Below, piece after piece: positions 10,098 through 42,735 of a stretch of DNA of 64,000 nucleotides. The first letter of the stretch is position 1. Every line of letters starts with the position of its first letter. Source of the DNA: Stegostoma tigrinum. Its lineage: Eukaryota. The notes beneath the pieces were generated by a model. The model did not search any database and had not been told where the DNA came from. It worked only from the letters and a program-made list of their open reading frames with translations. The stretch is taken from NCBI RefSeq assembly GCF_030684315.1, contig NC_081371.1:8759550-8823549 (forward strand). The letters are read 5' to 3'. The translations under genes were made by a program, and so were the position numbers.

Positions 10098-10298
10098 GAA
10101 AAGCTCAGCAGTTCTGCTAGCATCTGTGAAGAAAACATCAGAGTTAAGGTTTCTGGTCTGGTGACCCTTCCTCAGAACCGGGCCTGAAACGTTAACTCTG
10201 ATTTTTTTTTTCTTCACAGATGCTGCCAGACCTGCTATTCCAGCAACTTCGATTTTTGTTCCTGATTTACAGCATCCACCCTTCTTTCAGTTTTTATT
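10098..10298. mobile_element. Penelope-derived fold-back mini-element, family B
   Basis: Inverted arms around ...cttcctcagaac. Perfect 14-bp TSD aagagattttatta (10084-10097 and 10299-10312). Confidence 0.85.
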
Positions 10299-10917
10299 AA
10301 GAGATTTTATTAACTATTTGCAATAATCCTACATAAAGTACACTGAAGAGCTCATGCTGATTAATTCCTGAGCCTTGACTTCCATTGTGCTCAACAGCAA
10401 ATTTTTATGCCTTGTTCATGGACTGCAGGTGATCGTTCGAAGTGCAACACTTTGATCAATCAAAGACTTAGCATGTGACCATGCTGCAGTCAGGCAAAAG
10501 GGAGGTATTCATTTTCCTTCGCAACCTGTCCATAGACTTGCAGCTTGGGTCGCAAATGTTTAAGCTTTGCCCTACATTCAGCCTCCTCGTTCGTAATGCT
10601 TTAATCTAATCGAGCACGGAACGTAGACAGCATTGCTTTTATATGGTAGTGTGAATGAACGGAATGAGACAGCCTGTCAGCAGTTTGCTGAAAGGGGTTC
10701 CATTTAGATATTAGGAGGTGGGCAGACCTCCTAATCAGACCATTTGGGCAGCAGAGGGCCTGTCCCTTGAAGTGGAACTTGCAGAATTCATTGATGGGTA
10801 ATTCTGGAAGAGCCTGAGTCAAAACTTTCTTCTCCATTTAGTGAGCTTACGATCCAAAAAAGGTGGTGTCTTTGGTTCTGTGTGTGAACAAACATGCCAA
10901 ACTAGATTCAGTGGGTT

Positions 10918-11132
10918 TAAAAGCGCAAGTTGCTGGAAAAGCTCAGCAGCTCTGGCAGCATTTGTAAAGAACAATCAGAGGTAATGTTTCGGGTCCGCTG
11001 ACCCTTGCTCAGAACACCAAAATGTCAACTCTGATGTTTTTTCCTTCACAGATGCTGTCAGATCTGCTGAGTTTTTCCAGCAACTTCTATTTTCGTTCCT
11101 GATTTACAGTATCCACAGTTCTTTCCGTTTTA
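10918..11132. mobile_element. Penelope-derived fold-back mini-element, family B
   Basis: Inverted arms. Perfect 15-bp TSD tagattcagtgggtt (10903-10917 and 11133-11147). Confidence 0.85.
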
Positions 11133-11169
11133 TAGATTCAGTGGGTTGTCGGTAATGCTACTTAATGAT

Positions 11170-11460
11170 CCTGAGTTTAAGGTAAAGTTTTGACGATATG
11201 TGACATGGTGCAGAGAGTGTCCAGATAAAAGCTCAAGCATTTAGAAATGAGATAAGACATTGTTTCACTTGATTGTCCTAATTTTTGGAATTCTCTGCTC
11301 CAGGGGGCTGCCCTGTTTTTAAGTATATTCAGCACAGGGATTGAAAGATTTTTCGATACTCAGGGGATCATTTAAAAAGTGGGGTTCATGTTCAAGTTCA
11401 GTCATGATCTTAGTGAATGAGCTGACAGGTTTGTGGGGGCTGAATAGCTGCTCCCGTTTC
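11170..11460 (+). mobile_element. Decayed CR1 3' end
   Basis: ttggaattctctgc...tcagtcatgatcttagtgaatg...gggctgaatagctgctcc, similar to the tail at 47100-47165. Confidence 0.55.
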
Positions 11461-12520
11461 TCATCATTTTTGCGTTTTGACCCATTGAGGTTGTGATGCT
11501 GAAAACTGTGACATTGAAAGGCTGGAGCAAGTAAGCATGTTGTGAGTGAGAGACGAGGTAATGTTATATCATCTGTACTTGGCAAAAAATGACTGCAGTT
11601 CAACAAGAAGCAGGAAAAAGGTTCTCCGTTCTCTTTTGGTGAGATTTACCATCGATATGACAAGTCAACAGCCCCTTTGTTCACCCTTTCTGTTTCACAG
11701 TAACATAGTTCATTTGAGAGCAGAGTGTAAGGAGATCCTTAAGTCAGAACAGTCAAGCTGTACATTTATCATAAAACCACTAGATGTTCAAATTCAAAGT
11801 AAAGCCATGGCATAAAACTGTCTGGATTAATTTTCCACTCAGGAGCTTTGACCTACTTGAAGAGTTATCACTAAATTCTGTTAATCTCAGATGCCAAATT
11901 TGTGAAGGTACAAACAATGATTACAGTTTAAAAGGTAAAGACTTCACTTTTGTTTTCTGTTATGGAATTCAGGATGAGATCAGATTTTATGATGTAATTT
12001 AACCTTTTTGAAGCTTCAGTGTATTGGTGTTAAATACAGCCATTAATATTCTTCCAGGCTACATTTCTGGGCGTGGCAGTGCCCTCACCTTATAATACAG
12101 AACCTCTGGGAGAAGATGGGAGCTGAAATACATCACTTTTTGTTAGTGAAGCTGTTTGTCTTCATTAGGCTGTAGTTTTAAATTTCAAATTATTCAAATT
12201 GATAAAACAAAATTAAATATGAGCTGTGGTAGGATAATAGACCCCCTTTTCAAACCAAAGTCAATGACCAAATCAACAATGTATCACTTTTCAGTTCAGT
12301 TGTATCACTTCTATTTGACCAGTGGATTTTCAGCAAAGCAGACGGAGTGTTCTAAAGACAAGCATGGCTCAGCGCTACCCCTCAGCTCATCTTAGCTCAT
12401 GTCTTGACTACTGAATCCCCTCACAACTTTCCTTCCAAACTCAAGCTCTTGTTTCCTCTGACTGAACACACTAGTAAGAATCTTGTTGAGATGGTGGGGA
12501 CCTCTTCTGTATGCCAGCCA

Positions 12521-13413
12521 TGATGTTAGGTGTTTATTTATTATTTCCTATAATTTCCTTTAGAGTTTGGATCTTGAACTAGTGGCATATGGGTTTTGGT
12601 TTGTATGTATGAAGACGTGCAATAATGAACTTGTCAGTCTTTCTGGAGCTATGACTTTTAACCAGTTTGTCTGAGTGAGTACCTTCAAGAATGGTAGTGG
12701 GAATTTGTTTCCATGATAACAATTCTGTGATCGAAAAGATTAAACATTGAAAAGTGTAGAGAAGCAGAAATTCATTATTTTTACCGAGTGGAAAAACACA
12801 AAAATTGGAAAGCTTTAGGTTTCAGATTGTGGGAAGATATAGCAGAGACTAGATGTAAGAACAGTTTCACCTGGAGAAAAACATTAGTTCAGAACAGTTA
12901 GGAAATAAGTTACCGAAGTGTCAGGGTTTTCATTTTGAAATTCCAGACCAGAATTATTTTGTGAGAACCCTGAAAGGATTATTTGAAACTAAAAAAACTT
13001 AAGCTCACTTGTGTGAGTCATCAAGGGAAAGTGATCAAGCTGTCAAGATCGGGAATCGAAAGAAACAGTTAAGTTGAATCTGTATATGTGATAGAGAAGG
13101 GAACATTGTCTGGTATTCTAATACTGAAGAATAATGGTGTTGGGAATAGATGGGATTTTATTTTACTTTGAGTCTTTAATCTTTCAAATTGAGATAGATG
13201 CAAATAGTTTGGTTTGTTCAGTTTATCTTTATTTCTTTTACATCATAAATGTGTTTAATTTTTAAAAGAAAATGTTCCAAGCTGCATGCTTATGTTTCAG
13301 TGAAAGACCATCTCATTAAGTTTTTTAAAAAATGACAAAATATTATCTCTCAAGCTGGATGTCAGTCTGGGATCTGAAATGTTCATTAACAATATGAGCT
13401 GAGATCAGAAACA
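12521..13413. mobile_element. Probable solo LTR (~893 bp)
   Basis: Starts TG and ends AACA. Flanked by the direct repeat cagcca (12515-12520 and 13414-13419). AT-rich interior with no ORF in the track. Confidence 0.55.
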
Positions 13414-13959
13414 CAGCCAATCAGATAGTTTTGGGGCCAGCAGCAGGCCTTTGTCTGGGACCAGGACCCTGGAGGCAAAAGGCCCACCTGGCGAGTTCCA
13501 TTGCGTGTGTTTCACAGTGCTGTCAGAACAGAGTCCCTACATCATTCCTTTATCTGATGTGACATGGTTGTGAATGCTAAGAACGAGGGCCATGAGGAGA
13601 CGGGTTGGGCAAAAAGCATAACATGGCTTCCATCTGGCTGCTGAGTGTGCAGTTCCTCAATTGTCATTGCTGGAGCGATACTCCTGAGCAAGTTTCCTCA
13701 GGGCAACAGCAGTTGTATCTGGGATCAGTCTATTCTCAATATATTGGCAAAGTGAGGGAAGGGGTCATTGACAGTGCTATCAAGATGCACTTAGCAGTAA
13801 CTTGTTCACCAATATTTTACGTTCCAAAAATGAGACCAAAGACCTGAACCTGGGAGGTGAGGTGAGAGTGAGTGCCCTTGGCATTGAGACAGCGCCAAGG
13901 AGCCTGAGCAAATCTGCAGTCAGTGGGAATTGAGGGAATGTTCTCTCCTCATTGGAGCC

Positions 13960-15150
13960 ATACATAGCACAATTAGTGGTGATGAAGGTCAGTCATCTTA
14001 GTCCAAGGATATCAATGTAGAAGTTCCTCATGTTGATGTTCCAGGCCTAGTCGTCATCTGCTGCTTCCTCCATGACCCACCATATGTCATATCACTCAGA
14101 TGTACAGCTGTTCTGGCTGCTTACCGGCTGGAGCTGTCACTGATCAAGTATAGCAAGATCTGAACAAACTCCAAGCTTGGGCTGATAGTGAGAAGCAGCA
14201 TTTTTGCTGTGCAAGTGTTAGCCAGTGGCCATCTCCAGCAAGAGAGAATCCAGGCATCTCTCCTTCACATTCACTGGCATTACCATTGCTGAATTCCCAC
14301 AGGGGCTAGCATTGACCAGAAACTGAACTGGAGCAGCTTACAAGAGCAGGGCAGAGACTGGGAATTCTCTGGTGAGTAACACAACTTCTGATTTCCCAAA
14401 GAGACAGCAAGAACTGCAGATGCTGGAGTCCGAGACAACACAGTGTGGAGCTGGAGGAACACAGCAGTCCAGGCAGCATCAGAGAAGCACGAAAGCTGAT
14501 GTTTCAGGTCAGGACACTTATTCAGAAAATGGATTTTCTGAAGAAGAGTCCCGACCCTAAACATCTACTTTCCTGCTCCTCTGATGCTGCCTGGCCTACT
14601 ATGTTCCCCCAACTCCAAACTGTGTTGTTTCTGATTTCGCAAAGTCTGTTCGCCATCTACAAGGCTCAATTGGGAAGTTTGATGGAATGCACCTCACTTG
14701 CCTAGATGGTTGTAGCTCTAACAACACTTGAAAAAGCTCAACAACATCGGTGACAAAGCAGCCTGCTTGACTGACAACCCATTCACGACCTTAAACATTC
14801 CCTGTCTTCATACCTGGTAGACAATGTGTCCCATCTACAAGATGCATTTCAGCAACTGATCAAAGCTCCCCCAACAGCATCTTCCAAAGTCTCAACTTCT
14901 GCCATTTAGAAGCAAAGGGCAAAAGATGAATGGGAACGTCACCACCTATAAATTTCCCTCCAAAGCACATCCTGATTGGAAATGTATCGCTGTTGTTTGG
15001 TGAAGATCATGGACTTGCTTCCCTGATGGCATTGTGGATCTACCTACACCAAAGGGACTGCAGCGGTATAAGAAGACAGCTCACCATCACCTTCTCATGA
15101 CACTTAGGGTTGGCCAATAAACGTTGGCCTTACGAGCAACGTTCACACTC
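13960..15150 (+). mobile_element. Decayed CR1/L2-group LINE, RT 3' half and tail (second LINE family)
   Basis: Remnants of VPQGSVLGP, DL..LQAWAD and AIYKAQLGSLME. The tail is shared with 53900-54225 and 28150-28210. Confidence 0.7.
14402..14628. mobile_element. Penelope-derived fold-back mini-element, family A, nested in a LINE
   Basis: Palindrome centred on cagaaaat-gg-attttctg. TSD ttctgatttc(c/g)caaag (14386-14401 and 14629-14644). Confidence 0.85.
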
Positions 15151-15449
15151 CAGGAGCAAGTTAGTTCTCATTAATCTCCTCAAAGATACTCCACAACTTA
15201 TGCAAAAGTTCATTTCACATTTCTAATATCTGCAGTACTTTGATTTTGTCATATGTTGATTACCTCGTCATCTGCAGAAACGGTTCCTAAAAAGGGGAGA
15301 CATTACCAGAAAAACAGCAGGCCGTTGCGTGCCTTAAGCTTGTTCTGCCATTTAGGTGAAACGTGACTGCACTGTATCTGAACTCCATTTCCACTGTTAG
15401 TGCCATGTGAACTCTTGTATCTGCTTGACAGGGAAAACAGAATCTTAGT

Positions 15450-15560
15450 TTAGCATTTCATCTGAAAAGTTGTGCCTGACAGTGCAGCACACCCTCACTA
15501 CTGCTTCGGACTATTGGCCTAAACTATGTGTTCATGTTTTAGATGAGTGTGGTGGTATAG
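15450..15560 (-). mobile_element. DeuSINE-like fragment
   Basis: tttcatctgaaaag...gacagtgcagcacaccctcactactgc motif. Confidence 0.5.
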
Positions 15561-17242: not shown

Positions 17243-17885
17243 AATCATTGAAGCGTACAGGACAGAACAGGCCCTTTGTACTGCCAAAAATGCAATACCA
17301 CCTTTGCCAGCCCCACTTTCCGACATTGGGCCTTGAATGTTTTATCAAGTGCTCATCTGAGCACTGTATATAGCTTGGAAAGTTTCCCAGCTCAACTATA
17401 CTCTCATGCAGTGCATTCCATATCCCCAGTATCCTCTGGGTGGAAAAGGGCATTCACCCAATCCCTCTCAACCTCCTGCCTTTCATCTTAACGTTATGCA
17501 TCCTTGTTATTGACGCTTCAGTGAAGAGGAAAAGCTCCTTTCTATTCACTATCAGTGCCCCTCATAATCATATACAAGCCTCACCTCTCTGAACTCAAAA
17601 ATATCCGGCCTCTCTTCATAGCTGAGCTTTTCCAGCGCAGACAGCATCCTGGTGAATCTCCTCTGCAAACCCTCCACTGTAATCACGACTTTTCCATAGT
17701 GTGCTGATCAAAACTGCACGCAGTACTCTTAGGCTCCAACGTGACCTCTCTGCTCTTGCAGTCTGTGCTGTGAATGATAAAGGCAAGTGTCCTGTTTGCC
17801 ATCTCGTGTAACCCCATTCAACTGTCCTGCTGCCTTCAGAGATCTGTGGACAAGCATCCCAAGATCTCTCCGTTACTTTGAGCTT
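17243..17885 (-). mobile_element. CR1 3' end (RT C-terminus and UTR)
   Basis: FSTQRILGIWNAL motif. Paralogous to 1806-2500. Confidence 0.8.
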
Positions 17886-20907: not shown

Positions 20908-21106
20908 CATAACAAGGTGTAGAGCTGGATGAACACAGCAGGCCAAGCAGCATCTTAGGAGCAGGAATGCTGACGTTTTGCGCCTAGAAGGGTCTAAGCC
21001 TGAAATGTCAGCCTTGCTGCTCCTAAGATGCTGCTTGGCCTGCTGTATTCATCCAGCTCCACACCTTGTTATCTCGGATTCTCCAGCATCTACAGTTCTT
21101 GCTATC
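20908..21106. mobile_element. Penelope-derived fold-back mini-element, family A
   Basis: Arms match the terminal repeat of the 31.7-35.0 kb element. Approximate TSD tc(c/t)ggaagaa (20898-20907 and 21107-21116). Confidence 0.85.
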
Positions 21107-21638: not shown

Positions 21639-23121
21639 AGAGTAACTAGAGTGAGATAAGGGCCCATGTCAAAGGTCAAAGAGGCCATCTTCGTGTCAAA
21701 CCTCAGGAGATGGGAGAGATATTTAAATGATTATTTTGCACCAGCTTTCACTGTGGAGAAAGAAGTAAGCTAGAGAACGGGGGGAAATAAGTATTGGTGT
21801 TTTAAAAACAGTTCTCATAACAGAAGAGGAAGTGCTGGAGGTCTTAGAAAATATAAAGGTAGGTCAAGTTCCAGGACCCGATTTGGTGTATCCCAGGACT
21901 TTTGTGGGAAGTTGGGGAGGAAATTGCACAAATATTTACATCATCAAAAACGCAGATCAGGTGCCAGATAACTGGAGAGTTGTTAATGTCGCCAACGAGA
22001 AATGGAGTTGCTGGAAAAGCTCAGTACATCTGGCAGCGTCTGTGAAGAAAAAATCAGAGTTGACGTTTTGCATTCGGTGACACTTCCTCAGAACCTGGAC
22101 CCGAAACAGTAACTCTGATTTTTTTTTCTTCACAGATGCTGCCAGACTTGCCAAGCTTTTCCAGCAACTTCTGTTTCTGTCCCTGATTTACAGCATCTGC
22201 AGTTCTGTCGGTTTTTATTTGCTAATGTTGTGCTTGTGTTTAAGAAAGCCTGGGAACTATAGACCTGTGAATCTGACTTTGGTGATGTATAAGTTGATGG
22301 AAGCGATTCTGAAAGATTGGATTTATTTGCATCTGGAGAAGCAAGGAATGGTTTGAGATAGTCAGCATGGTTTTGTATGAGGGAAGCCACAAAGGTAAAA
22401 CTTATACAATTACAAGTAGGGCCTTGGGCAGTGTTTTAGAATGGAGAGACCTAGAGTTTTAGGTACATAATTCTGTGAAGTTTGCATCACATATGGATAA
22501 GGTGATTGGCAAGGTGCTTAGCACGCTTGCATGCATTGGTCACACCTTTGAGTAAAGGATGTTATGTTGAGGTTGTACAGGATGTTGGAGAGGCCTCTTC
22601 TGGAGTACTGTGTCCGGTTCTGGTCTCCCTGTATAGGAAGGATATTATTAAGCTGGAGCGGGCTCAGAACAGATGTACCAGGATGTTGCCAGGAATGGAG
22701 AGTTTGAGTTATAAGAAGCAGGATAGGCTGGGATTTTTTTTCATTGGAGCATAGGAGGTTGAGAGGTGCCCTTGTAGAGGTTTATAAAATCATGGTGGGT
22801 ATAGATAAGTTGATTGGCAGATGTCTTTTCCACAGGGTGGGGATTTTAAGACATGGGGCACATTTTTAAGATGAAAGGAGAATGATTTGGCAGAGGCAAG
22901 CAGGGCAACCTCTTTATGCAGAGCATGGTTCATGTGTGGAATGAACTTTGAGAGGAAGTGGTGGATGCAGGTACATTATAGTTTAAAAGCCATTTGGATA
23001 AGTACTTGAAAAAGAAACAGTTGGAGGGATTGGGCAAAACACAGGCAGGTGGGACGAGTTTAGCTTGGAATTATGTTCGGTATGGCCAGATTGGGCTGAA
23101 GGGTCTGCTTCTGTATGACTC
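21639..23121 (+). mobile_element. CR1 LINE fragment with internal RT deletion
   Basis: VLENIKVGQVPGPDLVYPR and QVPDNWRVVNV; jumps near 22385 from QHGF to the post-catalytic region; IKLERAQNRCTRMLPG; 3' tail. Confidence 0.85.
21992..22218. mobile_element. Penelope-derived fold-back mini-element, family B, nested in CR1
   Basis: Inverted arms. Degenerate TSD ttg(t/c)taatgt(c/t)g (21980-21991 and 22219-22230). Confidence 0.85.
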
Positions 23122-23356: not shown

Positions 23357-23541
23357 CAGAGATAGTAGGAACTGCAGATGCTGGAGACTCTGAGATAACA
23401 CAGTGTGGAGCTGGATGAACGCAGCAGGCCAAGCAGCATCATAGGAGCAGGAAGGCTGTTTCGGGCCTGAAACGTCAGATTTCCTGCTCCTCTGGTGCTG
23501 CTTGGCCTGCTGTGTCTGTCCAGCTCTACACCTTGCTATCT
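23357..23541. mobile_element. Penelope-derived fold-back mini-element, family A
   Basis: Inverted arms joined at gtttcgggcctgaaac. Perfect 14-bp TSD atgagttagaagtt (23343-23356 and 23542-23555). Confidence 0.88.
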
Positions 23542-26830: not shown

Positions 26831-26962
26831 CATAGACATGTCAACTCAGGTGGAACTTTTCCAGATATGGAGTGATTTCAAGTATTGTTACATACCTGAT
26901 TCCTGCAGGCCTCTTCAGAGTGACCCAACGTGGCTTGTCAATTCAAGCAATAAATCGTTAAG

Positions 26963-27149
26963 AGAGATAATGGGAACTGAAGATGCTGGAGAATCCAAGA
27001 TAATAAAGTGTGAAGCTGGATGAACACAGCAGGCCAAGCAGCATCTCAGGAGCACAAAAGCTGATGTTTCGGGCCGAAACGTCAGCTTTTGTGCTCCTGA
27101 GATACTGCTTGGCCTGCTGTGTTCATCCAGCCTCACTCTTTATTATCTA
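26963..27149. mobile_element. Penelope-derived fold-back mini-element, family A
   Basis: Near-perfect ~75-bp arms joined at tttcgggccgaaa. 15-bp TSD caataaatc(g/a)ttaag (26948-26962 and 27150-27164). Confidence 0.9.
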
Positions 27150-28253: not shown

Positions 28254-29262
28254 GCCAATGAGCCAAGGAGTGGCAGATGGAGTTTAATTTAGATAAATGT
28301 GAGGTGTTGAATTTCGGAAAGGCTAATCAGGGCAGGACTGATGCACTTAATGGTATAAGCCCTGGGGAGTGTTGCTGAACAAAGAGACTTTAGAGTGCAG
28401 GTGCATAGTTTCCTGAAAGGGGGACAAAAGCAGAAGTTGCTGGAAAAGATCAGCAGGTCTTTTTTGCATGCCTAGAAGAGATGTGGCAGTGAGTTGAATA
28501 CTGAATAAAAACTGAAAGAACTGCAGATGCTGTAAATCAGGATTTTCCAGCAACTTCTGTTTTTGTTCCTGATTTACAGCATCCGCAGTTCTTTCAACTT
28601 CCCTGAAAGGGGACCCAGAGGTAGTGAAGAAGGAGTTCGGCATGCTTGCCTTCATTGTTCAGGTATAGCAGTTGAAATATCATGTTGTGGTCAGACAGGA
28701 CATTGGTGGGGCTGCTTTTCGAATACTGCATACAATTCTTGTTGCCCTTCTATCGGAAGAACAGTATTAAATTTGAGAGGGCGCAGAAAAGATTTACAAG
28801 GATTTTGTTAAGACTGAAGGGTTCAAACTATACAGAGAGGCTGAATAGGCTGGGGCTCTTTCCCCATGGAGCATCAGATGCTGGCTGATGACTTTATAGA
28901 GGTTTATAAAATCATGAGGGGCATGAATAGGATGAATAGCCAAGGTCTTTTTCCCTGGAGAAGGGAGTCCAAACATCTAGGGCACAGGTTTAAGGTGAGA
29001 GGGGAAAGGTTTAAAAGGGACCTAAGGGGCAACATTTTCACACGGAAGGTGGTGCGTGCATGTGATGAGCTGCCAGAGGAAGTAGTGGAATCTGGCACAA
29101 TTACAGATATTAAAAAGTACCAGGATGGGTACATGGAAAGGGAGGGTTTAAGAGAAATATGGGTAAAGTGCTGGCAAATGGAACTAAGTCGGATCGGGAT
29201 GTCTGGTTGGCGCAGATGGTTCGGATCGAAGGGTCTGTTTCTGTGCCGTATGACCCAATGAC
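28254..29262 (+). mobile_element. 5'-truncated CR1 LINE
   Basis: WQMEFNLDKCEVLNFG, LFEYCIQF, ERAQKRFTRIL, DFIEVYKIMRG, FTRKVV, and 3' tail. Confidence 0.9.
28423..28598. mobile_element. Rearranged family-B Penelope mini-element nested in CR1
   Basis: Two inverted segments, ~40 bp of unrelated filler and one forward segment. TSD cctgaaagggg (28412-28422 and 28602-28612). Confidence 0.75.
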
Positions 29263-32140
29263 TAAGTTCTCAATAAAGCATAAACAAGTTCCCTGTTTAT
29301 TCATTGCAGCTCTGGACAGTTCTTAAGGCTGCAGCTATCTCTGTACATCAAAGGATTGCCGTGGTGAAAAGCCATCAGCACCTTAGAACAGCATTTGACA
29401 GAAACTGCAGGCTGGTTGCCAGATGAGATAACAAACTGTGACCATGTGTGACCACTGCTCCACTTCCCACAGTCTTCTGCCTCTTTTAGCTTGTAACTTC
29501 ATACAGAGGTCAGTCCTCCTCATTAACCTTTGAGCGAGCCAAAGGACAGGCACGAAGCACAAAGTAAACTCGCAGGTCGGTGACGCGAGGCTTGGTGGGA
29601 GCTTTCCAGGAAGACACCGCAGTGCTGCATGGAGTAAGTCACAGGCATCAAAGCTCAGAATAGAGGAGCCTTCCTGTTAGTGAAATTTGTCTTTCAGTCA
29701 GGCAGCCTTTTCACAGACCTGAAAGAGCCAGTGTGGAGTCCATTAAACACTTCCCTGAAGTCTTCCTCAAGCAACTGTTGACAGACAAGTGAAAAACAAG
29801 AGTCCAAAAATACTGCAAGCTGAAAAGAGCAAAGCTTGAGGTCGAAGCTATTTGACAATAACCTTTCCATCTGGAAACAAACATGTGCAGTGACCCACAG
29901 CCAGACTGAATACCTAAAGTGTGAGCAAGACTGGTGGATGAGAAATTGATAACTGAAACTCGGCGAAGTGACACTCCGTATTGTATAAATCAGGACTGAA
30001 TCACAGAAGTGGGACTAGGTAGCCTACAGCCTAATTTTACATCGGGATGTGTTACCTGACTTGGGCAGTTTCTTGCCTCAAGCAAGAGATGGGAGATATA
30101 GTGCAAAGAACAATTTATGAGGAGGGTTGAAGCACCTGCCTTTGTTGAGATATTTATGCTTCTGACTTGGTTCCTTGATTTGCTTTCCCAGGTGGTTAAT
30201 GTACGGCCAACCTGACCTGTCCAAACTCCTGAGGGCCCGAGCTGGAGCCTAATGTTTGCCACTCCCCTGCTCCACACTGCACCTTTGTTCCACGTTTCTC
30301 CCTGCACTGCCCTACCCCTTCCCAGGGTTCTTCTCTTTCTTGTCGGCTGCGATATAGCTGTCACATCAAATGCAGTCCTGGCCAGATTAATGAGGCAAAT
30401 AATGAAGCAAACCTAGGCCTTGAGTTAATGGCATCTCAGATGCCAGGTCAAACATTCGGAAGTTAGGAGTAAAAGGAGAAAGCAGTCCATACTTAAGAAA
30501 CCAGGGAGACCCTTCTTTGTGAACAGTTGAAATCAATCAAATGAGCTGTTGTAAGGGAGAGAAGGGTTTGAATCTTCTCATGAGCAAATGATTGAACAAT
30601 ATTGTTTTGTCAGGAAAAGGTGCAGACATTGGTACTATGATTTGTCTCAGTGATTTTCACCAAGTATGAAGGAAAGGCAAAGTTAAATTATCATCACATC
30701 CTAACCCCACATCTTTCAGATTTTCTCTTTAATGAAGCTCTTTTGCTGGTTTCATTGGTGTTTCATTCTTTCATTAAAGTCTTTTCCCCTCTTGTGGTCT
30801 GCAATTTGCATGCCAACACATGCCTTTCATTATGGATTATATCAGTAAATTTGAGCTTCAGAATGCTTAAATATAAACCAGCAAACACACTAATATAGAC
30901 CATATTTCATTGGGTTGAACTCCAAAGTCATTATAACACTGCTAAGTCTTAAATAAGTACTGTAATGCATTTTAAAAGCTTAGCTACAATAATAGTGACT
31001 TAATGAAATAGTCCACACAGAAGTGTAGGTACCAGACTTGGTAGCTTGTAATGGGGAGATAGTATGTGGGCAACTGCCTATATTACAGGATTTAGTTCTT
31101 GTGAGATCCTTATGGTTTGTAGTCTGTGACATCCTGTCCCCGTGAGAGGGGAGATCCCATGAATCATACCGAGGCATTCTGCACTTGTAAAAGGATAACG
31201 TTATGATGTCTACTTAATTTAAAAAGGAAGCTGAAGAATAATAAGTATTTTAGTTACAATATAATGTTTATAGAAAGGGGGTGCAGCACATTTATTGCTA
31301 AATGTTCATTCATACTGTTACATTGGTAAGTGACATCTACTGACCAGCTTTGTCAACATATGAAGCTGTTTAATTTTGATAGAAATAACAACAGGGCTCA
31401 CGACAGCCATTGTTAATTAGGCAGATCGTTTGTAGCAAGCACAGTCAATCTGCAGATTACCATCAAATGTGGAAACCTGTGTTTCCCTGGTCCACCAGAA
31501 GCAATGTGAATGGTATGTCACAGTGTTGCTTTTTCCTTTCAGGTGAATTGAACAATGTGATGTTGTCGAACTTATCTGATGGGTCTAGACTGAAGCCAAT
31601 GTAAATCCTAGGCCTTGTGTAGTAGTGGACAGTGTAATGGTCATAATTACTGTCAAGTAACAACTCTGGCACTGAAAATCAACGTTTGCAAGTGTGGAGT
31701 CACATTCCTCAATAACAAGGTGTGGAGCTGGATGAACACAGCAGGCCAAGCAGCACCTTAGAAGCAGGAAAGCTGATGTTTCAGGCCTAGACCCTTCATC
31801 AGAAATGGGGGAGGGGGAGAGGGTTCTGAAATAAATAGGGAGAGAGGGGGAGGTGGATCGAAGATGGACAGAGGATCAGATAGGTGGAGAGGAGACAGAC
31901 AAGTCAAAGAGGCGGGGATGGAGCCTGTAGAGGAGTGTAAAGGTGGGGAGGTAGGGAGGGAATATGTCAGTCCGGGGAGGACGGACAGGTCAAGGGGACG
32001 GGATGAGGTTAGTAGGTAGGAAGTGGAGGTGCAGCTTGAGGTGGGAGGAAGGGATAGGTGAGAGGAAGAACAGGTTAGGGAGCCGGGGACGAGCTGGTCT
32101 CGTTTTCAGATACGATAGGGGGAGGGGAGATTTTGAAGCT

Positions 32141-34530
32141 GCCAAAGCCACCGCCTCCATTTCCGAGACCAACACCTCAGACACTACCACCACCGATGCT
32201 GCCGTCGCCTACCCTGCTCCGCCCACCACTGACGCAGCTCCGCCCATCACGGATGCGGATGCAGATGCAACTCCGTCCACCGCCGATGCCAAAATCACTC
32301 CGTCCACAGCCAGCAGCTGCAGAGGAGACAGCCACACTGGGCCCTGCTGAATCTTCACCATCCCCCCAGACCTCCCCCTGACTGAGGACGAATGGTCAGT
32401 CCTCAGGAAGGGGCTCACCTTTGTCCCCCTCCACCCACACATCAACGAATACCAGTCAAGTTTGGACATTGAGCAGTTTTTCGCTACCTCCACCTCCACG
32501 CTTACTTCTTTAACCAGGAGCCTAACCCTTCCTCCACTGATCCCTTCACCCGCCTCCAATACAAGTCCTCCTCCTGGACACCACCCCCAGGCCTCCTACC
32601 CTCCCTCAACCTCTTCATCTCCAACTGCCGTCGAGACATGAATCGTCTTGACCTCTCCACCCCTCTCACCCACTCCAACCTCTCCCCCGCAGAATGGGCA
32701 GCCCTCCACTCCCTCCGCTCCAATCCCAATCTCACCATAAAAACCGCGGACAAGGGAGGCGCAGTGGTAGTATGGCGCACTGACCTCTACATTGCTGAGG
32801 CTTGACGCCAACTCTCCGACACCTCCTCCTACCGCCCCCTGGATCATGACCCCATCCCTGAGCACCAAACCATTGTCTCCCAAACCATCCACAACCTCAT
32901 CACCTCAGGTGACCTCCCATCCAAAGCCTCCAACCTCATTGTTCCCCAACCTCACACCGCCCGCTTCTGTCTCCTTCCCAAAATCCACATACCTGCCTGC
33001 CCTGGCCGACCCATTGTCTCCGCCTGCTCCTGCCCCACCGAACTCATCTCCACCTATCTGGACTCCATTTTCTCCCCCTTCGTCCAGGAACTCCCCACCC
33101 ACGTCCGTGACACCACCCACGCCCTCCACCTCCTCCAGAACTTCCAATTCCCCGGTCCCCAACACCTCATTTTTACTATGGACGGCCAGTCCCGAGACAC
33201 CTGCATTCCTCGTGCAGATGGCCTAAAGGCCCTCCGCTTCTTCCTGTCCCGCAGACCCAACCAGTCCCCCTCCACCGACACCCTCATCCGCTTAGCTGAA
33301 CTCACCCTCACCCTCAACAACTTCTCTTTCAATTTCTCCCATTTCGACAGACAAAAGGGGTGACCATGGGTACCTGCATGGGCCCAAGCTATGCCTGCCT
33401 CTTTGTAGGTTACGTGGAACAGTCCCTCTTCCGTACCTACACTGGCCCTAAACCCCACCTCTTCTTCCGTTACATTGATGACTGTATTGGCGCCGCCTCA
33501 CGCTCCCACAAGGAGCTCGAACAGTTCGTGCACTTCACCAAAACCTTGCACCCCCAACCTCAAGTTCATCTGCTCTATCTCGAACACCTCCCTCACCTTC
33601 CTGGACCTCACTGTCTCCATCTCGGGCAACCACTTACAAACCGATATCCATTTCAAGCCCACTGACTTCCACAGCTATCTAGAATACACCTCCTACTACC
33701 CACCTTCCTGCAGAAATTCCATCCCTATTCCCAATTCCTTCAACTCAGCCGCATCTGCTCCCAGGATGAGGCATTCCACTCCCCTACATCTTAGAAGTCC
33801 TCGTTTTTCAAGGACCGCAACACCCCCCCCACAGTGGTCGAGAACGCCCTCAACCGTGTCTCCCGCATTTCCCGCAATTCATTCCTTACACCCCATCCCT
33901 GCAATAACCAAAACAAAATCCCCTTCGTCCTCACGTACCACCCCACCAACCTCCGGATCCAACGCATAATCCTCCAACACTTCCGCCAACTGCAATCCGA
34001 GCCCACCACCAAAGACATTTTTCCCTCCCCACCTTTGCCTGCTTTCCGGAGGGACCACTCTCTCCGTGACTCCTTTGTCCGCTCCACGCTTCCCTCCAGC
34101 CCCACCTCAGCTGGCACTTTTCGCTGCAACCGCAGGAAGTGCTACACCTGCCTCTTCACCTCCTTGCTCACCCCCATCCCAGGCCCCAACAAGACTTTCC
34201 GCATCAAGCAGATGTTCACCTTCACATCTGCCAAAGTGGAATACTGCTTCTGCTGTTCCCGTTGTGGCCCCCTCTACATTGGGGAAACCGAGTGGAGGCT
34301 TGGGGACCGCTTTGCAGATCACCTACACTGGGTTCGCAATAAACAACTGCACTTCCCAGTCGCGAACCATTTCAACTTCCCCTCCCGTTCCTCAGACGAT
34401 ATGTCCATCCTGGGCGTCCTGCAGTGCCATAACGATGCCACCCGAAGGTTGCAGGAACAGCAACTCATATTCCACATTGATACCATTGGGCTGCAGGGTT
34501 CCCATGTGGATTCCACAAGCTTCAAAATCT
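32141..34530 (+). pseudogene. Disrupted Penelope ORF (RT, Cys-rich linker, GIY-YIG endonuclease)
   Basis: IKTADKGGAVVVW, LLPKIH..PGRPIVS, MGTCMGPSYACLF, FFRYIDD, GTFRCNRRKCYTC and CSRCGPLYIGETEWRLGDRFADH, with several stops and frameshifts. Confidence 0.9.
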
Positions 34531-34882
34531 CCCCTTCCCTACTGCATCCCAAAACCAGCCCAGCTAGTCCCCACCTCCCGAACCTGTTCTTCCTCTCACC
34601 TATCCCCTCCTCTCACCTCAAGACGCACCTCCATTTCCTACCTACTAGCATCATCCCATCCCCTTGACCTGTCTGTTCTCCCTGGACATACCTATCTCCT
34701 CTCCACATCCCCACCTACACTCACCTTTACTGGCTCTATCCTCACCTACACTCACCTTTACTGGCTCTATCCTCACCGCTTTAACTTGTCTGTCTCCTCT
34801 CCACCTATCTTCTCCTCTACCCATCTTCGCTTCGCCTCCCCCTCTCTCCCTATTTATTTCAGAACCCTCTTCCCCTCCCCCA

Positions 34883-34916
34883 TTTCTGATGAAGGGTCTA
34901 GGCCCGAAACGTCAGC
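34883..34916 (+). ncRNA. Minimal type I hammerhead ribozyme motif in the Penelope terminal repeat
   Basis: CUGAUGA (34886-34892), stem II GGGU-CUAG-GCCC, GAAA, C-GUC; predicted cleavage after 34913. The palindromic ACGU stem III needs a dimer and stem I is weak. Confidence 0.6.
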
Positions 34917-37570
34917 TTTCCTGCTTCTAAGATGCTGCCAGGCCTGCTGTGTTCATCCAGCTCCACACCTTGTTATCTCGGATTCTCCAGCATCTGCAGC
35001 TCCTAATATTTCTGGAGTGACGCTCCTTCAGTTTTTAACAGTGTTGCACATACAGTAATCAAGCAATTAAAAGGTTGCTGTTTACTTTTCCTTCCTACAT
35101 CTTTTAACTCTTTTTGTTATTCCAGCCGTTATTTCTTGATATATTATTGCTGTATTTCTTGCTTATTTCCTCATCCTGTGCGAGATTTAGCATTAAGTTA
35201 ATTAATTGCAGTCAATACTTCCTGGTTTAGACTGTGAGTGCCTCAGTAAGGATTCTTGAGTTCGATTGGTTCAAGAGATGTGCAGTTTCTTGCCCTCTCA
35301 CATTGGTCCCAGATGCCCTTCAGAGATTGCTGAGCTGCTTGGTGTTCGCTGACAGGAACTTCTAGTGGAAAGACAGGAGCCTCAGGAGTACCATTCAAAA
35401 CACTTTGAAGGTGAACCAAAACAAAAGGCATCAAAGTGAGTCATTAATAATTTGCACAACTGGCCACTACATGGTCATTCATAAATTTCAAAATATAGGG
35501 CGCATACAATTGTTAATCATGTACAGATCTCAAGACACTCCTCGTACTGAATGGTTTCATTGAAATACAAAGTGTGGCCCATCTGATTGCTGCTGGTCTA
35601 ATGCTTTGATCAACAACATGGTGTGGGCCAAGCCATCAAGTGTGGAGTTCCCAAGCAGGCTCAGTGCAGGCCCATACAAACCCATCTGTCTCTGCCTAAA
35701 TTCTTGAGTTTCATGGAGCCACGGAGGTTTACAGCACAGAGGGAGTTCATTCGGCCCATCATGTCTATGCTCAACCTTCTTGTAGCTTATTTCTTCCTCA
35801 ACATTTCATCTACTTTGCAGCTCTTACTGGGGAATTAGAAAACTGCTTCAGTCACTGATGGAGCAGTTCTTCACAGTAAGATAGTCTTTGTTCCAAAAAC
35901 CATGTCCTCCATGTCATGTCCTCCAACCATCCTCCGTGTTTTTGTTAGATTGATCCTGCCAGTTACAGCATAACTGCCATTTTCCATATGTGAACCTGGA
36001 AAAATTGGTGCAGTTATGCATGCAACTTAGAGAAATGCTTCCTTTATTTCAGATGTGTTAACCCTGCAGTTCTGAAAGATAATGAGTCAGTTACCTCTCA
36101 TTTAACTGGACCCTCTTGGGAACTCACTGACTAATATGTGGAGTTTGAGATGTCATGAGAGGAAGTAAATGGTGAAGTGGAACAAAATATATTTTTGGCA
36201 TGAATGCCACGTATCTCATTGGAGGTAGATGCAGTTGTGAAAGCGCACACTGATGCGACTGGTGCTTCAATTTGTTTCACATCTTGCCTGCAACTCCCTG
36301 GCAGAGATGGAATTTTCCATTTTATGTTGTGCAGTCATTCAAAATTCCCGTCTCTACCGACTCGGTAATTCAAAAACCACTGGTGCAGTCGCCATTCGTG
36401 CACAAAATGGCACATTGCTAATGACAGGTTGCAAGGAGATGGTGCATATGTTATGAGTCAAGGAACATCTGTTTTCCAAATTTACTGCCTTTGCCACTTG
36501 AAAGCACTGGAATCTAAAAAGACTGACTTAAAATGGACTCCCAGGGCTTTCTGCAGTAACAAGACTGTGGGAAGAGCATCACGAGATCTGGAAGGTCTGC
36601 TCTGGTGTACTGAGTTTTGCAATTTGTCTTGTTAACAGAGTTAATGCTGCCTAGACCATAGTGTAATTGACAGAGTGGCAAAGGGGCATAATGTTTTTTC
36701 CTCTGATGTGTGACGGGCAACCTAAGAAGGCAGTAACCCTTCTTCTGTCCTGCTGATCTGGTCGCCAAAACTTATACTCCCACCGCCTCCCTGATCTGAT
36801 CATCACTGAGCTGAACAAGCCCCTTCCTGTCCAAAACCCTGGGTTTCTTTCATCCTGCAGACTCATCGAGCCTTCTCGGGACTAGTTGCAGTGTCCACTA
36901 GCGAGCTTCCTATTGTGGTGCAGATGCGCAAATAGTCTGCACTCCCCATAGAATTCTGCCTGATGTCCTTGCCATTGATCCTTGGATAAGAAGCCCCTCT
37001 ACTACGATCAGAGAAATTGAAATGCCGTTCTGGACAGTTCCTTAAAACTTTTCTCTTGTTATCCAGACTTCCTGAATACATTGTTGAAAATTACCTCAAT
37101 CTGTTTTGCGTTGATATTGAATTGATTCATTTTGACGCAAAAGAACGTTCATTACAACAGAAAAATCCATTGCGTTGAATAAACTGATGGAGCCTGTCTT
37201 TGTTTGCGGTACTCGCAACTACATTGTTAAATCAAAGTCGAAGCTATGTAGTGTCCACTGGGATAGTAAATGAAATATTCTGTGAAGGATCATAGAATTG
37301 CTACAGGATGGAAGGAGACAATTTGGCCCATCATGTCTTGACTGACTGTCTGAATGAGTTCACCATTTCATCTGGTATCTCTACCCACCACCCAGCGCAT
37401 TCTTCCTTTTCAGATAGCAGTGGTAAATTACAGACTCAAGATTTCATTCATCTTTAAAGCCCTAAGAAATGGTTGACCAATATTTCAGTCTAAAAGACAG
37501 TGGATGAATTTTGGCATTGGGGATCAAACATACTTGGAGCGAGCCTGTGACAAGACTTTGTTCTTACAAG

Positions 37571-37728
37571 CATCAGAGGAGCAGGAAAGCTGACGTTCCA
37601 GGTCCAAACCCTTCTTCACCCAAAACGTCAGCTATTTTCCTGCTCCTCTGATGCTACCTGGCCTGCTGTGTTCCTCCAGCTCCACACTGTGTTATCGCTG
37701 ACTTCAGCATCGGCAGTTTTTACTATCT
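37571..37728. mobile_element. Older Penelope-derived fold-back mini-element, family A
   Basis: Short left arm and full right arm. Degenerate TSD, 12/15 match (37556-37570 and 37729-37743). Confidence 0.75.
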
Positions 37729-37747
37729 CTTTGTTTTTGAAAGTTAC

Positions 37748-38590
37748 TTTGGCTTATATGACTCTTCTCATTACTACCAGGCATCCCTGAGCACTTCACA
37801 ATCAATGCAATACTTTTTTCAAGCATAGTAACTGTTGTAATGTAGGAAACATAGTCAGCTATATTCATGCACCAAACTCCCATAAAAAGCAACATGATAA
37901 TGACAAGAGAATGATGTTGATTGGGGGATAAAGATTTGCCAGGACCCTGCTCCTCTTCAAAATACTGCCTTTGATTTTCTATATTGACCTGAGCAGACAG
38001 AGCCTTGGTTTAACACCTCAGTTGAAAGGCTGCCCCTCCAACAGTGTTGAAATGAATTGAATTGAATTGAATTAGCTTTATTGCCACATACATGCACTAT
38101 AAATACTGTGAAAAGGTGACAATTCACCACTTATGGTGCCATCTAAGATACCTGGGCACCGATTCTTGAGTACAAATTCTTCGGGGAAAAAAATATTCGA
38201 AAATAAAGCATTACATATTTTCAAAAGTACAAAATCATTGTAATAAATTAGAAAAAATAGAGCTAAAATGTTCAGAATAATTGTTCTTCCAAGATAATAT
38301 AACGAAAGGGAAAAGAATTAAATAAAAAGAGAAATTAAGACAAAGTCCACATGGCTCATTTCACCATTGTGGGCTCAATGACTGGACTCCCCCTCCCCGT
38401 TGGAATTGCAGATTGGGCTCACCATGATGCCAATAAAACATGGAATCATAGACTGACTGAAGCTGCTGCAATGACACCCACGCTGACGCCGATGAAACCA
38501 GTGTAGTGCTCGCTCAGTACCACCTTGGAGTGTTACACTCAGGTCCTGCTGCAGGAAGCCCAGACTGTCAGTAATTCGGACGCAAGTGTG
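37748..38590 (-). mobile_element. DeuSINE-like element interrupted by a 450-bp insertion
   Basis: DeuSINE motifs at 37748-38047 resume at 38499-38590 and end at the tRNA head ccagctgagccacagc. Confidence 0.7.
38048..38498 (-). mobile_element. Unclassified retroposed insertion with an (AATTC)n tail
   Basis: Minus-strand AATAAA followed by (aattc)n tail. 6-bp TSD cagtgt (38042-38047 and 38499-38504). Confidence 0.55.
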
Positions 38591-38844
38591 CCACCAGCTG
38601 AGCCACAGCGGTCCTTTAGATGCACCCCTCAGGTGATTTTATTGATGACTGGAGCTGTTCCAGTTCCAGACTGTTCTGTTCCAGTCTGATTCTGTGAGAA
38701 CCCTCACTAAGCTGCAGGACTGTGGCACAATATTGACTGCAGCAGGGGTAGAATATTTGGACTGTCGGTCAGTCTATAAAGATAAAACATGGCATTACAA
38801 AATAGACCATTAATTCTGCTTTATTTTCCTTCAGACCATAAACA

Positions 38845-39760
38845 GGGCATTTTCAGTTGGCACGTGGTGAGTAGTGGATTTGATGTAAGGGTTGCCAAAG
38901 CCAGCTGTCAGCTTTTTACAATCGACGCTAAAGGTTCAGAGAGTAATGTATCCATTTTTACTGATGGTACAAATCTAGGTTGGAAGTGAAACTAGGGAGG
39001 ACAAAGACACACTGTGAGGAGATATTGGCAGGTTAACTGAGTGGGCAACAAGTTTGCAGATGGAGTATATTTGATGACGTAGGAAGTAATTTGTTTGCTA
39101 CTAAGAATTGAATAGCAAAATACTTTCTAACAAGTGCGAAACCTGCAAATGCTTTTTTCCAAAGTATTTTGGATGCAACGTATGCATTTAGATAGAGCAA
39201 ACATGGAGCAAGTTAGCGTGTAGAGAGAGACAACATGCAAAAAGTTAGCATGTAGAGAGAGCAAACATGCAGGAAGTTAGCATGTAGAGAGACACAGCAT
39301 GCAAAAAGTTAGCATGTAGAGAGAGCAAACATGCAGGAAGTTTGTATGTAGAGACAGCAAGCATGCAGGAAGTTAGCATGTTGAGAGAGACAGCATGCAG
39401 GAAGGTAGCATGTAGAGAGAGCAGACATGCAGGAAGTTCGCATGTAGAGAAAGAAAACACGTAGGAAGGCAAATGGCATGTTGGCCTTTTTTACAAGAGT
39501 ATTGAGCAACAGGAATAAAGTAGATGTTTTACAAAGGCACAAGATTTTGGTGAGACAATATTTGGAGTACTGTGCATAGTACTGCAATGGATCACTAAAT
39601 TAGTACTTAGAAAGTGGAGACTGCCCTGTGGAGAATAGCTCAGCAAACTGGGTCTGAATTTACTTCTGTTCTGAAGTATAGAAAGCAATGTCCTCGGAAT
39701 AAATAAGGTTCTGAAGGGATTGATATGGTAGATGCTGAGAAGTTGTTTCCACTGCCCAGG
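38845..39760 (+). mobile_element. Decayed CR1 RT fragment
   Basis: SIFTDGTNLG, cagatggagtat, ggaaggcaaatggcatgttggcc, ttggagtactgtgc. Confidence 0.75.
39190..39467. repeat. 32-bp minisatellite, ~8.5 copies, inside CR1
   Basis: Unit approximately agagagagcaaacatgcaggaagttagcatgt. Confidence 0.92.
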
Positions 39761-40509
39761 TCATCGAAGTCACACCAAGTCATCAGTCTCAGCCCTTTTG
39801 CATGTAGCAGCTGCCTGCGTGTCAAACACTCTGCCTCTTCAGTCCAGCCAGTGGCTACTTTGGGGACTGGTACTGGACTGTCCTCAGAACATTTGAGTAA
39901 GCATCTGTGGCGACTTACCAGTCCTGACAGGCATAACTGAGTTGAGAGCTTGCTGCCGAGCTGAAGGAATGTTCGATGAAAAGTTTATGCATAAATGTGG
40001 AAACTAGCAAACCTGAGTATGGTTGTCAGCCACCCTTTGTGATATGTGGAGAGTGGGCTAGAGGAATGGTCTAAAAGACTGCATTCTGGCCAAATCAGTC
40101 TTACTTGATCGCCTCACTCATGTTCTTTTTTTTATTTTTATAGAGTAGCCACAGTCACAGTGGTCCATTCAGGCCTGTTATTTCATTTAATGTCCACATT
40201 TAATCCTAATGTATTTTCCAGTTCCATTCATTTTCAGTTGGTTGGGAAATGATTCTATAGCCTGAAAGCTGGCCCTGATATTCAAAGATCCCCTCCACCT
40301 GTCCACCTTCTCACCAATACCTCAGTCTCTAGACATCCCTGGAATTTTTAGCATCAACTCTGACACATTTGGTGACACTTCCTGCCTTCGGGGCAAAAGA
40401 TTGTAGTTTCAAGTTCTCCTCCAGAATTTGAAGGAGGAAAACCTGAAACTTAATGCTCCTGGTGAAATGATGAGGGATTGCTGTACTGTTGGAGCTGTCT
40501 TCTTGAAGA

Positions 40510-40970
40510 TTGAGCAAATAATTGGCAGATGAATTTCAATGAAGTTAAATGTTTGAGTGGAAGCATTTCCAGAATGTTTTCAGAGCTGAGTGTTTACAGC
40601 TATGTTTTTTTGTTTAGAATAGAGAAGCATGAGCGGTGATCTGATAAATTATAAATACGTCAGACAGGATAGATATGGAGGACAAGTTCCACTTGTGAGA
40701 GGTGGCCATAAACCCCAGATAGTTGCTAATAAACTCAATTGGGAAATAAGGAGAATTTTTTTTCTTCAGCAAGAAGCTAGAATATGAAACTCACGATCTC
40801 AGGATTTAGTGGAGGGAAACAGCCTAATCTTACATGCTTTCAAAGAAAGTTAGGCCTATACCTAAAGGAGAAGACAGTAATAAAAGTAATGAAGTGTAGG
40901 ATATTTGTATGAACACTGGCATCGACTAGTTGTCTCATAGGATCTGGTTCTGTACTGTAAATTTTACACA
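40510..40970 (+). mobile_element. Highly decayed CR1 3' fragment
   Basis: ggcagatgaatttcaat..aaatgt and gagcggtgatctgat motifs, plus tail ggttctgtactgtaa. Confidence 0.55.
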
Positions 40971-42189
40971 GTCTTAGCTCTGAAAAATGTGTTAATGTTA
41001 TACAACTCTCAGTGCACTCTTCAGATGCATCAACATTTACGAGACAGTCTGGAGAACTAAAAATTGATTGTTTTTTCAATGTTCTGTGGGACCAGAGTTT
41101 TAATACGCTCTTTTATGCTCACCAGCTCAGTTAATTGCAACCTGAAAGAGAAAGTCAAACTCTCAGAATATGGTTTCACAACAGTTTAGAGCAAATATCA
41201 TTACACTTTGAGATTCTAGGGGATGTATTTAGATAAGTATTTATTATAGGCTTTTTTTTCTTTCATAGAAGCAGACCCATTGCATATCTGTTTTCTACTT
41301 CTTACAAACACAATATTGGTAAAGCAGTTGTTTTTGAGATGGAGTTGTTATGGGCAGAGAGCTTCTTTACTGCTGCCTAACAGGCATGTTCACAAGTTAC
41401 TGCTTCTTTCAGATGTGGACAACTGCCTGCATGACATTATTGTGCTCAGCTTAGACGAGAGAAGAATTACCTAGTGTCACAATCACTGCTTATTTACCAG
41501 CCTTTGTCCAGCAGGCTGATGGCACAGAGTGGAAATCCCTTTGTGATTTTGATGAAATCTTCTCTGCTCCTATTTCCAGCAGATGCATTTCATTTGCTCA
41601 TCTCCCTTAGAGATTGAGCCTTCAACCTCCGCACCCCTGCACTTAGAATCCTCCCCTCAAACGTTTTTGTCCTGTTGCCGCTGGTCTCAGTAACATGTCC
41701 CACTTCGGCCTCCCTGTAACCTTTCTTTCCAGTTTCCCGCTTGCTGTCCAGTTTTTCTATGAAACACCATGTGTGTCATATGAAAATAAGAAGGCGCAGT
41801 ATTGTATTTCCCATTGAACAAGTGCAATGTTCAAACTCTCAATGTAATCCATGCTTTAACCAGGCTTGCAGTTTTTTGCAATCCACGAACTGTCACTTTG
41901 TTTGTCATTTCTGGCAACTCTTAGCTCTTGTTTGTAGGAGCCTATTGTCCATTGAATGTAGCAGCTCTTAAAAATGATATGCAACATGTAGAATGGTCAG
42001 AAAAGATTCCATCACATTTTTTAAATGTGGCGTTTTTATGCTGTTTGTAATAATCCTCATTATGAGCTTCTGATGGCCTTTAGTTGTGAGTGAGAAGAAT
42101 ATTTATTGACACTGTTTGCTGAACTGAATGTCTCCTGGGCACTGAGTGACTCGAACGTCTTCTGTCTCTTTGCGAATCTCTTCTTTCAG

Positions 42190-42348
42190 GTCCCCCGGGA
42201 CCCCCTGGAGGGGTGCGAGTTGAGAATATTGGAGACACCTTTGTGACCTTGACCTGGAGTCGAGGAACAGACAACCACAGCCCAATCTCTAAGTACACTA
42301 TCCGACAGAAGTTCGTCGATTCTGATGAATGGAAAGATGCCAGGACAG
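42190..42348 (+). CDS. CNTN1: Contactin (most likely contactin-1) internal exon, N-terminal half of FNIII domain 1
   Basis: Pyrimidine tract plus ttctttcAG acceptor (42188-42189) and GT donor (42349). 159 bp, phase 1/1. Translates (G)[52 protein letters not shown], close to recalled CNTN1 [34 protein letters not shown]. Confidence 0.93.
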
Positions 42349-42604
42349 GTCAGTACCAGCCCAGTTATACAGCAGTCTTGGATTGAATAAGAAAAACACA
42401 GCCAGGAATGTTATAATAGGTTCTGTTTCTTTTCTGTTCATAATCCAGCAAGCATTCAGTTATGTTAATCATAGTTTATGGGGTAAGATGTTGAAAACCA
42501 GTTGACCAAAGGAGTACTGTAACTTCGGTCAGGATGTGGCAGAGGGAAGGTGAGAATGTTGGGAATTGAAACAATCCCGACAAATTCCAGATTTACTTAA
42601 GAGC

Positions 42605-42735
42605 GTTCTGAGGAAGATCATTGGACCTGAAAGGTGAACTCTGACTTCTGTCTACGGATGCTGCCAGACCTGCTGAGCTTTTCCAGCAAATTCTGTTCTT
42701 GTTTCTGATTTCCACAGTTCATTTGGTTTTTATTG
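42605..42735 (+). mobile_element. Single-arm family-B Penelope mini-element
   Basis: Starts at gttctgagga (degenerate hammerhead) and ends ggtttttatt like the other family-B copies. Confidence 0.75.

Follow-up and report, generated by a model that had tools for sequence, protein, structure and literature searches.

The combination of an inverted copy, a 30–40-bp tail and a target-site duplication (TSD) is already published as the insertion unit of Penelope-like elements (PLEs) (Arkhipova 2013, PMC3846280; Craig 2021, PMC8557442). For the Poseidon element of a lizard, the in vitro sections of Frangieh 2024 (PMC11167929) used here report that both target strands are nicked and extended, that reverse transcription begins within the RNA, at two sites that flank the tail and irrespective of the downstream sequence, and that the enzyme mainly uses uncleaved RNA. 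The origin of inverted repeats, tails and partial tandems in PLEs is not yet settled in the field. We analyzed 64,000 nucleotides of Stegostoma tigrinum (NC_081371.1, positions 8,759,550 to 8,823,549; hereafter the window), which hold two families, A and B, of short fold-back insertions (minis) built around a predicted hammerhead motif, together with one long PLE. The minis work like a standard insertion of an endonuclease-positive (EN+) PLE at its shortest and form a discrete, PLE-derived short class. With a probability of roughly 60%, they are hammerhead-to-tail PLE ends, made as run-off cDNAs from two nicks and joined head to head. What is added here to the published unit is a sharp boundary in contigs and a promoter geometry.

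Inverted repeats were present at all nine loci listed in the initial annotation of the window (five of family A, four of family B). It had given nine fold-backs of 160–230 bp and one single-arm copy, and this was borne out, with lengths of 158–227 bp when measured between TSDs (n=9). Profiles of both families, run against the whole window, added no clear copy to the nine fold-backs, the single arm at 42605 and the long PLE. A weak family B-like trace at 57024–57073 (minus strand, E 0.03) may be chance. The copies are the following.

14402–14628, minus strand: family A fold-back; both arms reach the equivalent of position 34883 in the long PLE; 16-bp TSD with one mismatch.
20908–21106, plus strand: family A fold-back of the long PLE's subfamily; weak TSD (10 bp with one mismatch or 13 bp with two).
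23357–23541, minus strand: family A fold-back; apex at the GGCC of stem II; arms unusually unlike; perfect 14-bp TSD.
26963–27149, minus strand: family A fold-back of its own subfamily; apex at the GGCC of stem II; 15-bp TSD with one mismatch.
37571–37728, plus strand: family A fold-back; short arm of 48 bp, arms non-nested; weak TSD (12/15, three mismatches).
10098–10298, plus strand: family B fold-back; inverted arm terminates at 10178, where stem I begins; perfect 14-bp TSD.
10918–11132, plus strand: family B fold-back; inverted arm terminates at 11015, where stem I begins; perfect 15-bp TSD.
21992–22218, plus strand: family B fold-back; inverted arm terminates at 22094, where stem I begins; weak 10-bp TSD with one mismatch.
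28423–28598, plus strand: family B composite of about 48 bp of filler and three very short pieces of the near and far 3' ends; no hammerhead; 14-bp TSD with one mismatch.
42605–42736, plus strand: family B single arm, from the first base of stem I through the tail; no TSD found.

The claim that each fold-back has its own TSD held for its first part, with a TSD at nine of nine loci and three perfect 14–15-mers, but three of the nine are weak. The six strong TSDs measure 14, 15, 16, 14, 15 and 14 bp, three of them perfect and three with one mismatch. Those of 20908, 21992 and 37571 score at the level of random background in a free search; when the search was tied to the element edges, 0.7–1.3% of 1500 random pairs matched their scores, a lenient test because the edges had been set by eye and the candidates were already known. 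TSDs are richer in A+T than the window (65% versus 57%). Own TSDs, and junctions private to each copy, agree with the earlier view of the minis as independent insertions. The apex, as also claimed, lies within or beside the CUGANGA...GAAAC-GUH motif: in all eight simple minis it falls between 3 nt 5' of the CUGA core and the GAAAC box, the exception being the 28423 copy, which has no hammerhead core. All nine simple fold-backs, namely the eight minis and the long PLE, show the published combination of an inverted 5' copy, a 30–40-bp tail on one end and a TSD, the TSD being weak at three minis and at the long PLE. Miniature inverted-repeat transposable elements (MITEs), in contrast, have terminal inverted repeats and fixed ends and are copied as a unit; here the arms are unequal and the junctions private across the nine copies. 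Nor did the window contain the head-to-tail units, each with a hammerhead, that define a retrozyme. The ~48-bp filler of the 28423 composite (28453–28500) has no match elsewhere in the window.

The parent of family A is the long PLE, whose parts are as follows.

31710–35012, plus strand: long, putatively Neptune-type PLE insertion of 3.3 kb; truncated at the 5' side inside its open reading frame (ORF), with stops and frameshifts; itself a fold-back.
31712–32140, minus strand: inverted 5' arm of the long PLE, without tail; reverse complement of 34518–34976 (82% over 460 columns).
34883–34916, plus strand: minimal hammerhead motif of family A; core 34886–34892, stem II 34894–34905, GAAAC-GUC 34906–34913; predicted cut after 34913.
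34979–35012, plus strand: tail of ~35 bp between the near and far 3' ends; tail-less arms end at 34974–34978.

Family A matches the 3' terminal repeat of this coding element at 80–91% identity, as the initial annotation had proposed. Not noticed before was that the long PLE is itself a fold-back with a TSD (31695–31709 and 35013–35027; weak, 12/15 identical), its arms unequal and only one bearing the ~35-nt tail. The part from 32141 to 35012 codes for a broken, 5'-truncated protein in which motifs in the translations show a reverse transcriptase (RT) followed by a C-terminal GIY-YIG endonuclease with a CCHH motif, as in EN+ PLEs. A CX2-5CxxC linker between RT and endonuclease characterizes the Neptune and Nematis clades in the classification of Craig 2021 (PMC8557442), and the C-X4-C-X2-C linker in the ORF at 33795–34667 places the long PLE with them. 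Its best named relatives are in whale shark, at 78%, and in rays and a bamboo shark, at 46–56%, as befits an elasmobranch host; PF01541 is carried by 4 of 36 relatives, and Pfam gave no family for five ORFs, among them three broken pieces of the PLE's own. The long coding element has the same geometry and TSD length as the minis, a point in favor of the explanation preferred below. The initial annotation is supported on the PLE origin of the minis and on their mobilization by the PLE RT/GIY-YIG protein. Near the ORF end, the window copy carries an inversion of ~35–40 bp (34471–34511) with 5–7 bp of inverted microhomology at its bounds, seen as opposite-strand joints in 4/4 of the sequencing runs described next. 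A second fold-back hotspot at 34468–34511 was considered and rejected as this short inversion, private to the window copy.

We compared the contigs of four of 24 listed runs (X1, X2, X11 and X15, the last possibly of RNA) with 33600–35099; all figures are for the matches listed, and those for X1 and X2 are lower bounds. Loose ends before 34883 occurred in at least 957 (X1), at least 984 (X2) and 53 (X15) contigs, the largest group of 'before' ends among those listed, and the flanks at these ends were unlike one another (agreement 0.35–0.39). On the other side, loose ends behind 34978/34979 were found in at least 1373+2542=3915 contigs of X1, at least 1397+2471=3868 of X2 and 288 of X15, and behind 34979 in 734 of X11. 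The same two boundaries recur in head-to-tail joints of 34978/9 to 34883/5 (at least 83 contigs in X1, at least 77 in X2 and 6 in X11). These joints of a ~96-nt unit point to retrozyme-like tandems elsewhere in the genome. Summed contig depth in X1 reached 10–22 million over 34850–34999 versus 0.3–5.3 million over 33600–34649, figures that do not amount to copy number.

The minis are not random truncations. A continuum of randomly 5'-truncated copies with inversion, its short end mistaken for a class, could appeal to the long PLE, whose arms end 5' at unrelated places (32141 and 34518), and to copies that extend further upstream. We give it very little credence: it does not account for the single-base boundary at 34883 in at least 957 and 984 contigs of X1 and X2, nor for family B, where three inverted arms and the single arm share, to the base, an end point at the start of stem I. 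In family A, all starts of the 10 mini arms lie in a span of 20 nt, from −3 to +17 relative to the core and before the predicted cut site; not one is further upstream than 34883. RT stalling at RNA structure, a variant of the same idea, fares no better, since stem I would presumably be unpaired from its 3' side before RT reached that point. The discrete size class of the initial annotation thus stands: neither continuous lengths nor random fold points were seen, and the 5' boundary is sharp.

That boundary coincides with an initiator-like motif, which forms part of one further feature.

34851–34886, plus strand: predicted core promoter; TATA-like TATTTAT (first T at 34851), initiator-like CCATTTC (A at 34882), spacing 31 nt.

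Both motifs recur in the inverted arm of the long PLE, and across 127,900 window positions the background frequency of such a pair is 0.02% under strict and 0.13% under loose criteria. We infer that 34882–34883 is a predicted RNA polymerase II start site. Start sites have been mapped inside the pseudo long terminal repeat (pLTR) of Drosophila Penelope, where the internal promoter is TATA-less, and of Chlamys-3, and TATA/initiator (Inr)-like motifs have been described in rotifer pLTRs. By eye, in the lizard template of Frangieh 2024 (PMC11167929), a TATA-like run lies ~30 nt ahead of an initiator-like motif, which in turn precedes stem I by ~11 nt. For the family A copy, we rejected a 3' splice site at stem I of the kind present in Drosophila Penelope, because no AG comes before 34883. 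Two G at 14530–14532 separate the arms of the 14402 copy, both of which are at the predicted start; they may be templated or cap-derived extra bases, in one ambiguous case.

A fixed 5' end could also belong to a separate non-autonomous RNA of ~130 nt from stem I, resembling that of a short interspersed element (SINE), transcribed from master loci and mobilized in trans, with the palindrome formed anew at each insertion. This explanation, possible though unlikely, is most plausible for family B, which has no coding relative in the window. It gains from the head-to-tail tandems of the ~96-nt unit and from published non-autonomous pLTR derivatives, of which those treated in the cited parts of Li 2026 (bioRxiv preprint, 10.64898/2026.07.22.740005) and Craig 2021 (PMC8557442) are examples. 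Yet three subfamilies are represented among the family A minis, one of them common to the coding element; contigs are also rich in sequence from upstream of 34883 (again not a copy number); and transcripts of tandem arrays would not yield a fixed end at 34883.

Both families contain a minimal type I hammerhead motif (CUGANGA, stem II, GAAAC-GUH, a palindromic center and a short stem I), with a stem I of 3 bp in family B and 2 bp in the long copy of family A. Stem II folds; in the lowest-energy fold the core pairs instead with the sequence behind it and the active form is absent, and the z-scores are not significant. Since Rfam gave no hammerhead match at E≤1, the hammerheads of both families are called predicted ribozymes from the motif. 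Ribozyme-cleaved templates were considered and rejected because no arm starts at the predicted cut site: the hammerheads in the arms are uncut, and no 'before' end was found at 34914 among the contig matches listed.

All nine simple fold-backs carry the tail on exactly one arm, a pattern with a chance of ~0.002 under independent 50:50 choice and the one expected if two nicks use different start sites. In four of them (10098, 10918, 21992 and 37571) the arms are non-nested, the tail-less arm extending further 5' than the tailed one. Because neither arm contains the other, two cDNAs are needed for these four, and self-folding of one cDNA is insufficient. It is nonetheless self-folding that Arkhipova 2013 (PMC3846280) and Craig 2021 (PMC8557442) propose in the relevant sections: one cDNA or antisense template would snap back on the stem II palindrome and prime itself, with tail asymmetry arising when an endonuclease resolves the product. 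This published interpretation agrees with the apices in the stem II palindrome of 20908, 23357 and 26963 and with arms that usually share subfamily variants. It could also give the nested arms of five of the six family A fold-backs (long PLE counted), which are a point against our own explanation. We consider snap-back improbable here, given the four non-nested copies, the near 3' end that is both a measured RT start in vitro and a major free end in contigs, and the arms of 23357, which differ at 11/64 columns. These 11 non-CpG differences include subfamily-type columns, and may reflect two RNA templates or old divergence.

Was the palindrome inherited? Probably not. The initial annotation had seen a retro-MITE class, in which palindromic masters would be transcribed and copied whole, and this part of it was not upheld. 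No two of the nine fold-back junctions are identical, although two pairs, 23357/26963 and 10098/21992, are one base apart, and these pairs, the narrow size range and a variant at column 61 common to two short arms count in favor of such inheritance. The look-alike junctions of 23357 and 26963 sit on a GGCC palindrome in copies of different subfamilies, which fits recurrent joining. No variant consistently distinguishes the arms with a tail from those without one, copies vary in orientation and end points, and the best fold-back joint listed near the hammerhead appears in only 9 and 7 contigs, weak evidence since hairpins break such contigs and fold-back junctions are therefore undercounted. 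Copying of whole palindromes is accordingly a highly unlikely source. Among the three family A subfamilies, 14402 and 37571 form a separate group, and 20908 differs from the arms of the long PLE at 3–6 of 65 non-CpG columns, as close as those arms are to each other. The arms of one family A copy mostly share subfamily variants (three differences in 65 non-CpG columns in both 26963 and 20908), and those of 26963 share private ones. The two other family A subfamilies and family B have no coding copy in the window.

In the explanation that we prefer, run-off from two nicks, the PLE protein would nick both target strands 10–16 bp apart, and each nick would prime one cDNA at one of two internal start sites, at the near and far side of the tail. 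The cDNAs would run off the predicted RNA 5' end after ~97 or ~130 bases, be trimmed, and be joined head to head by microhomology in the self-complementary stem II. Two cDNAs of the same polarity can anneal only through self-complementary sequence, which would put the apex in the hammerhead without ribozyme activity. The minis are then likely dead-end copies of the first 100–130 bases of the element RNA, not a self-copying element: the TATA-like box lies upstream of what they contain, so they would be dead ends, and any longer copy with its promoter retained could feed them.

Besides the nested arms, several points weigh against run-off from two nicks. The short arms of 10098 and 37571 fall ~20 and ~44 nt short of the near site. 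For family B, neither upstream sequence nor a coding parent was seen in the window. The in vitro data come from a Poseidon element, not Neptune. The RNA start at 34882–34883 is a prediction; its TATA-like box is one mismatch from TATAWAW and was spotted only after the boundary was known, and since the internal promoter of Drosophila Penelope is TATA-less, the minis might still be transcribed. As for the contigs, X1 and X2 belong to one study and may be the window's own source, the 34883 boundary is absent among the matches listed for X11 (organism B), and 5628 groups of loose ends and 606 joints lie outside those listed.

If run-off from two nicks is correct, one can read from the ends of the minis, with nothing but genome sequence, where the RNA starts, which two sites are used for priming and how far apart the nicks lie; two-nick priming is then favored over self-priming. 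More tentatively, the PLE protein may bind near the capped 5' end of the transcript and routinely make a strong-stop-like cDNA of ~97 or ~130 nt from the leader that bears the hammerhead. A dimeric enzyme making one cDNA per start site would give one-tail palindromes; head-to-tail tandems, the seeds of pLTRs and retrozyme-like arrays, would arise when synthesis jumped from the run-off end to the near start. Frozen intermediates would then number many thousands in shark genomes, and inverted pLTRs, tails and tandems would come from one mechanism without a ribozyme cut. In annotation, such copies should be masked as PLE ends: there are ten of them in 64 kb, and they resemble MITEs and produce weak matches to microRNA precursors.

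Pattern scans of metagenomes returned five loci that matched only over the seed, which we read as chance; a scan of viral contigs gave no matches. Elsewhere in the window, another repeat, presumably related to long interspersed elements, occurs in four copies that are 65–73% alike (22541–23114, 28663–29255, 52775–53349 and 60577–61112), one of which adjoins the 28423 insertion. At 39184–39469 lies a tandem repeat whose period is ~64 bp or some divisor of that length. Sub-threshold Rfam matches to U6 (21 bits) at 9885–9988 and to tRNA (25.5 bits) at 45181–45254 are possibly chance or old retrocopies.

In the open literature we found neither short shark fold-backs of PLE origin nor run-off at a transcript start described; Repbase or Dfam may already list these ends. 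Twin priming of L1 is a parallel in that two nicks prime two cDNAs that are joined by microhomology, as proposed for the minis, but it copies two different parts of the RNA, whereas both cDNAs of a mini copy the same part. Retroviral strong-stop DNA is likewise a short cDNA that runs off a capped 5' end, although neither a tRNA primer nor RNase H would take part in making the minis.

Compared with the canonical EN+ PLE unit, as far as Arkhipova 2013 (PMC3846280) and Craig 2021 (PMC8557442) describe it in the sections cited, the locus has the same head-to-head arms, junction palindrome, one-arm tail and TSD; the unit also shares TATA/Inr-like pLTR motifs and solo pLTRs. Here, however, nothing but the hammerhead-to-tail piece is left of either arm, TSDs measure 10–16 bp rather than the 8–10 bp of the rotifer examples, and the minis have a fixed 5' boundary at stem I, which does not appear in those sections, where self-priming is favored. 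The PAc Poseidon of Anolis (PMC11167929) has the same two RT starts flanking the tail, the nicking and extension of both strands, the uncleaved RNA and a 3-bp stem I; it belongs to another clade, and the sections used do not treat inverted products, short genomic copies or the transcription start. Minimal hammerheads dispersed with metazoan PLEs (Cervera and De la Pena 2014, PMC4209133) number thousands of solo copies, with opposite-strand pairs 100–700 bp apart and a palindromic 15.2–16.2, and the part cited names no shark; in the minis, by contrast, the apex brings the two cores together, and as a rule one of them is incomplete. Non-LTR retrozymes, present in the one chondrichthyan sampled according to the cited parts of Cervera 2020 (PMC7229834) and Li 2026 (10.64898/2026.07.22.740005), are also short, non-coding, pLTR-derived units with type I hammerheads that are thought to be moved by PLEs. 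They are head-to-tail tandems with circular RNA, whereas the minis are single head-to-head insertions whose ends are unlike those of ribozyme cleavage.

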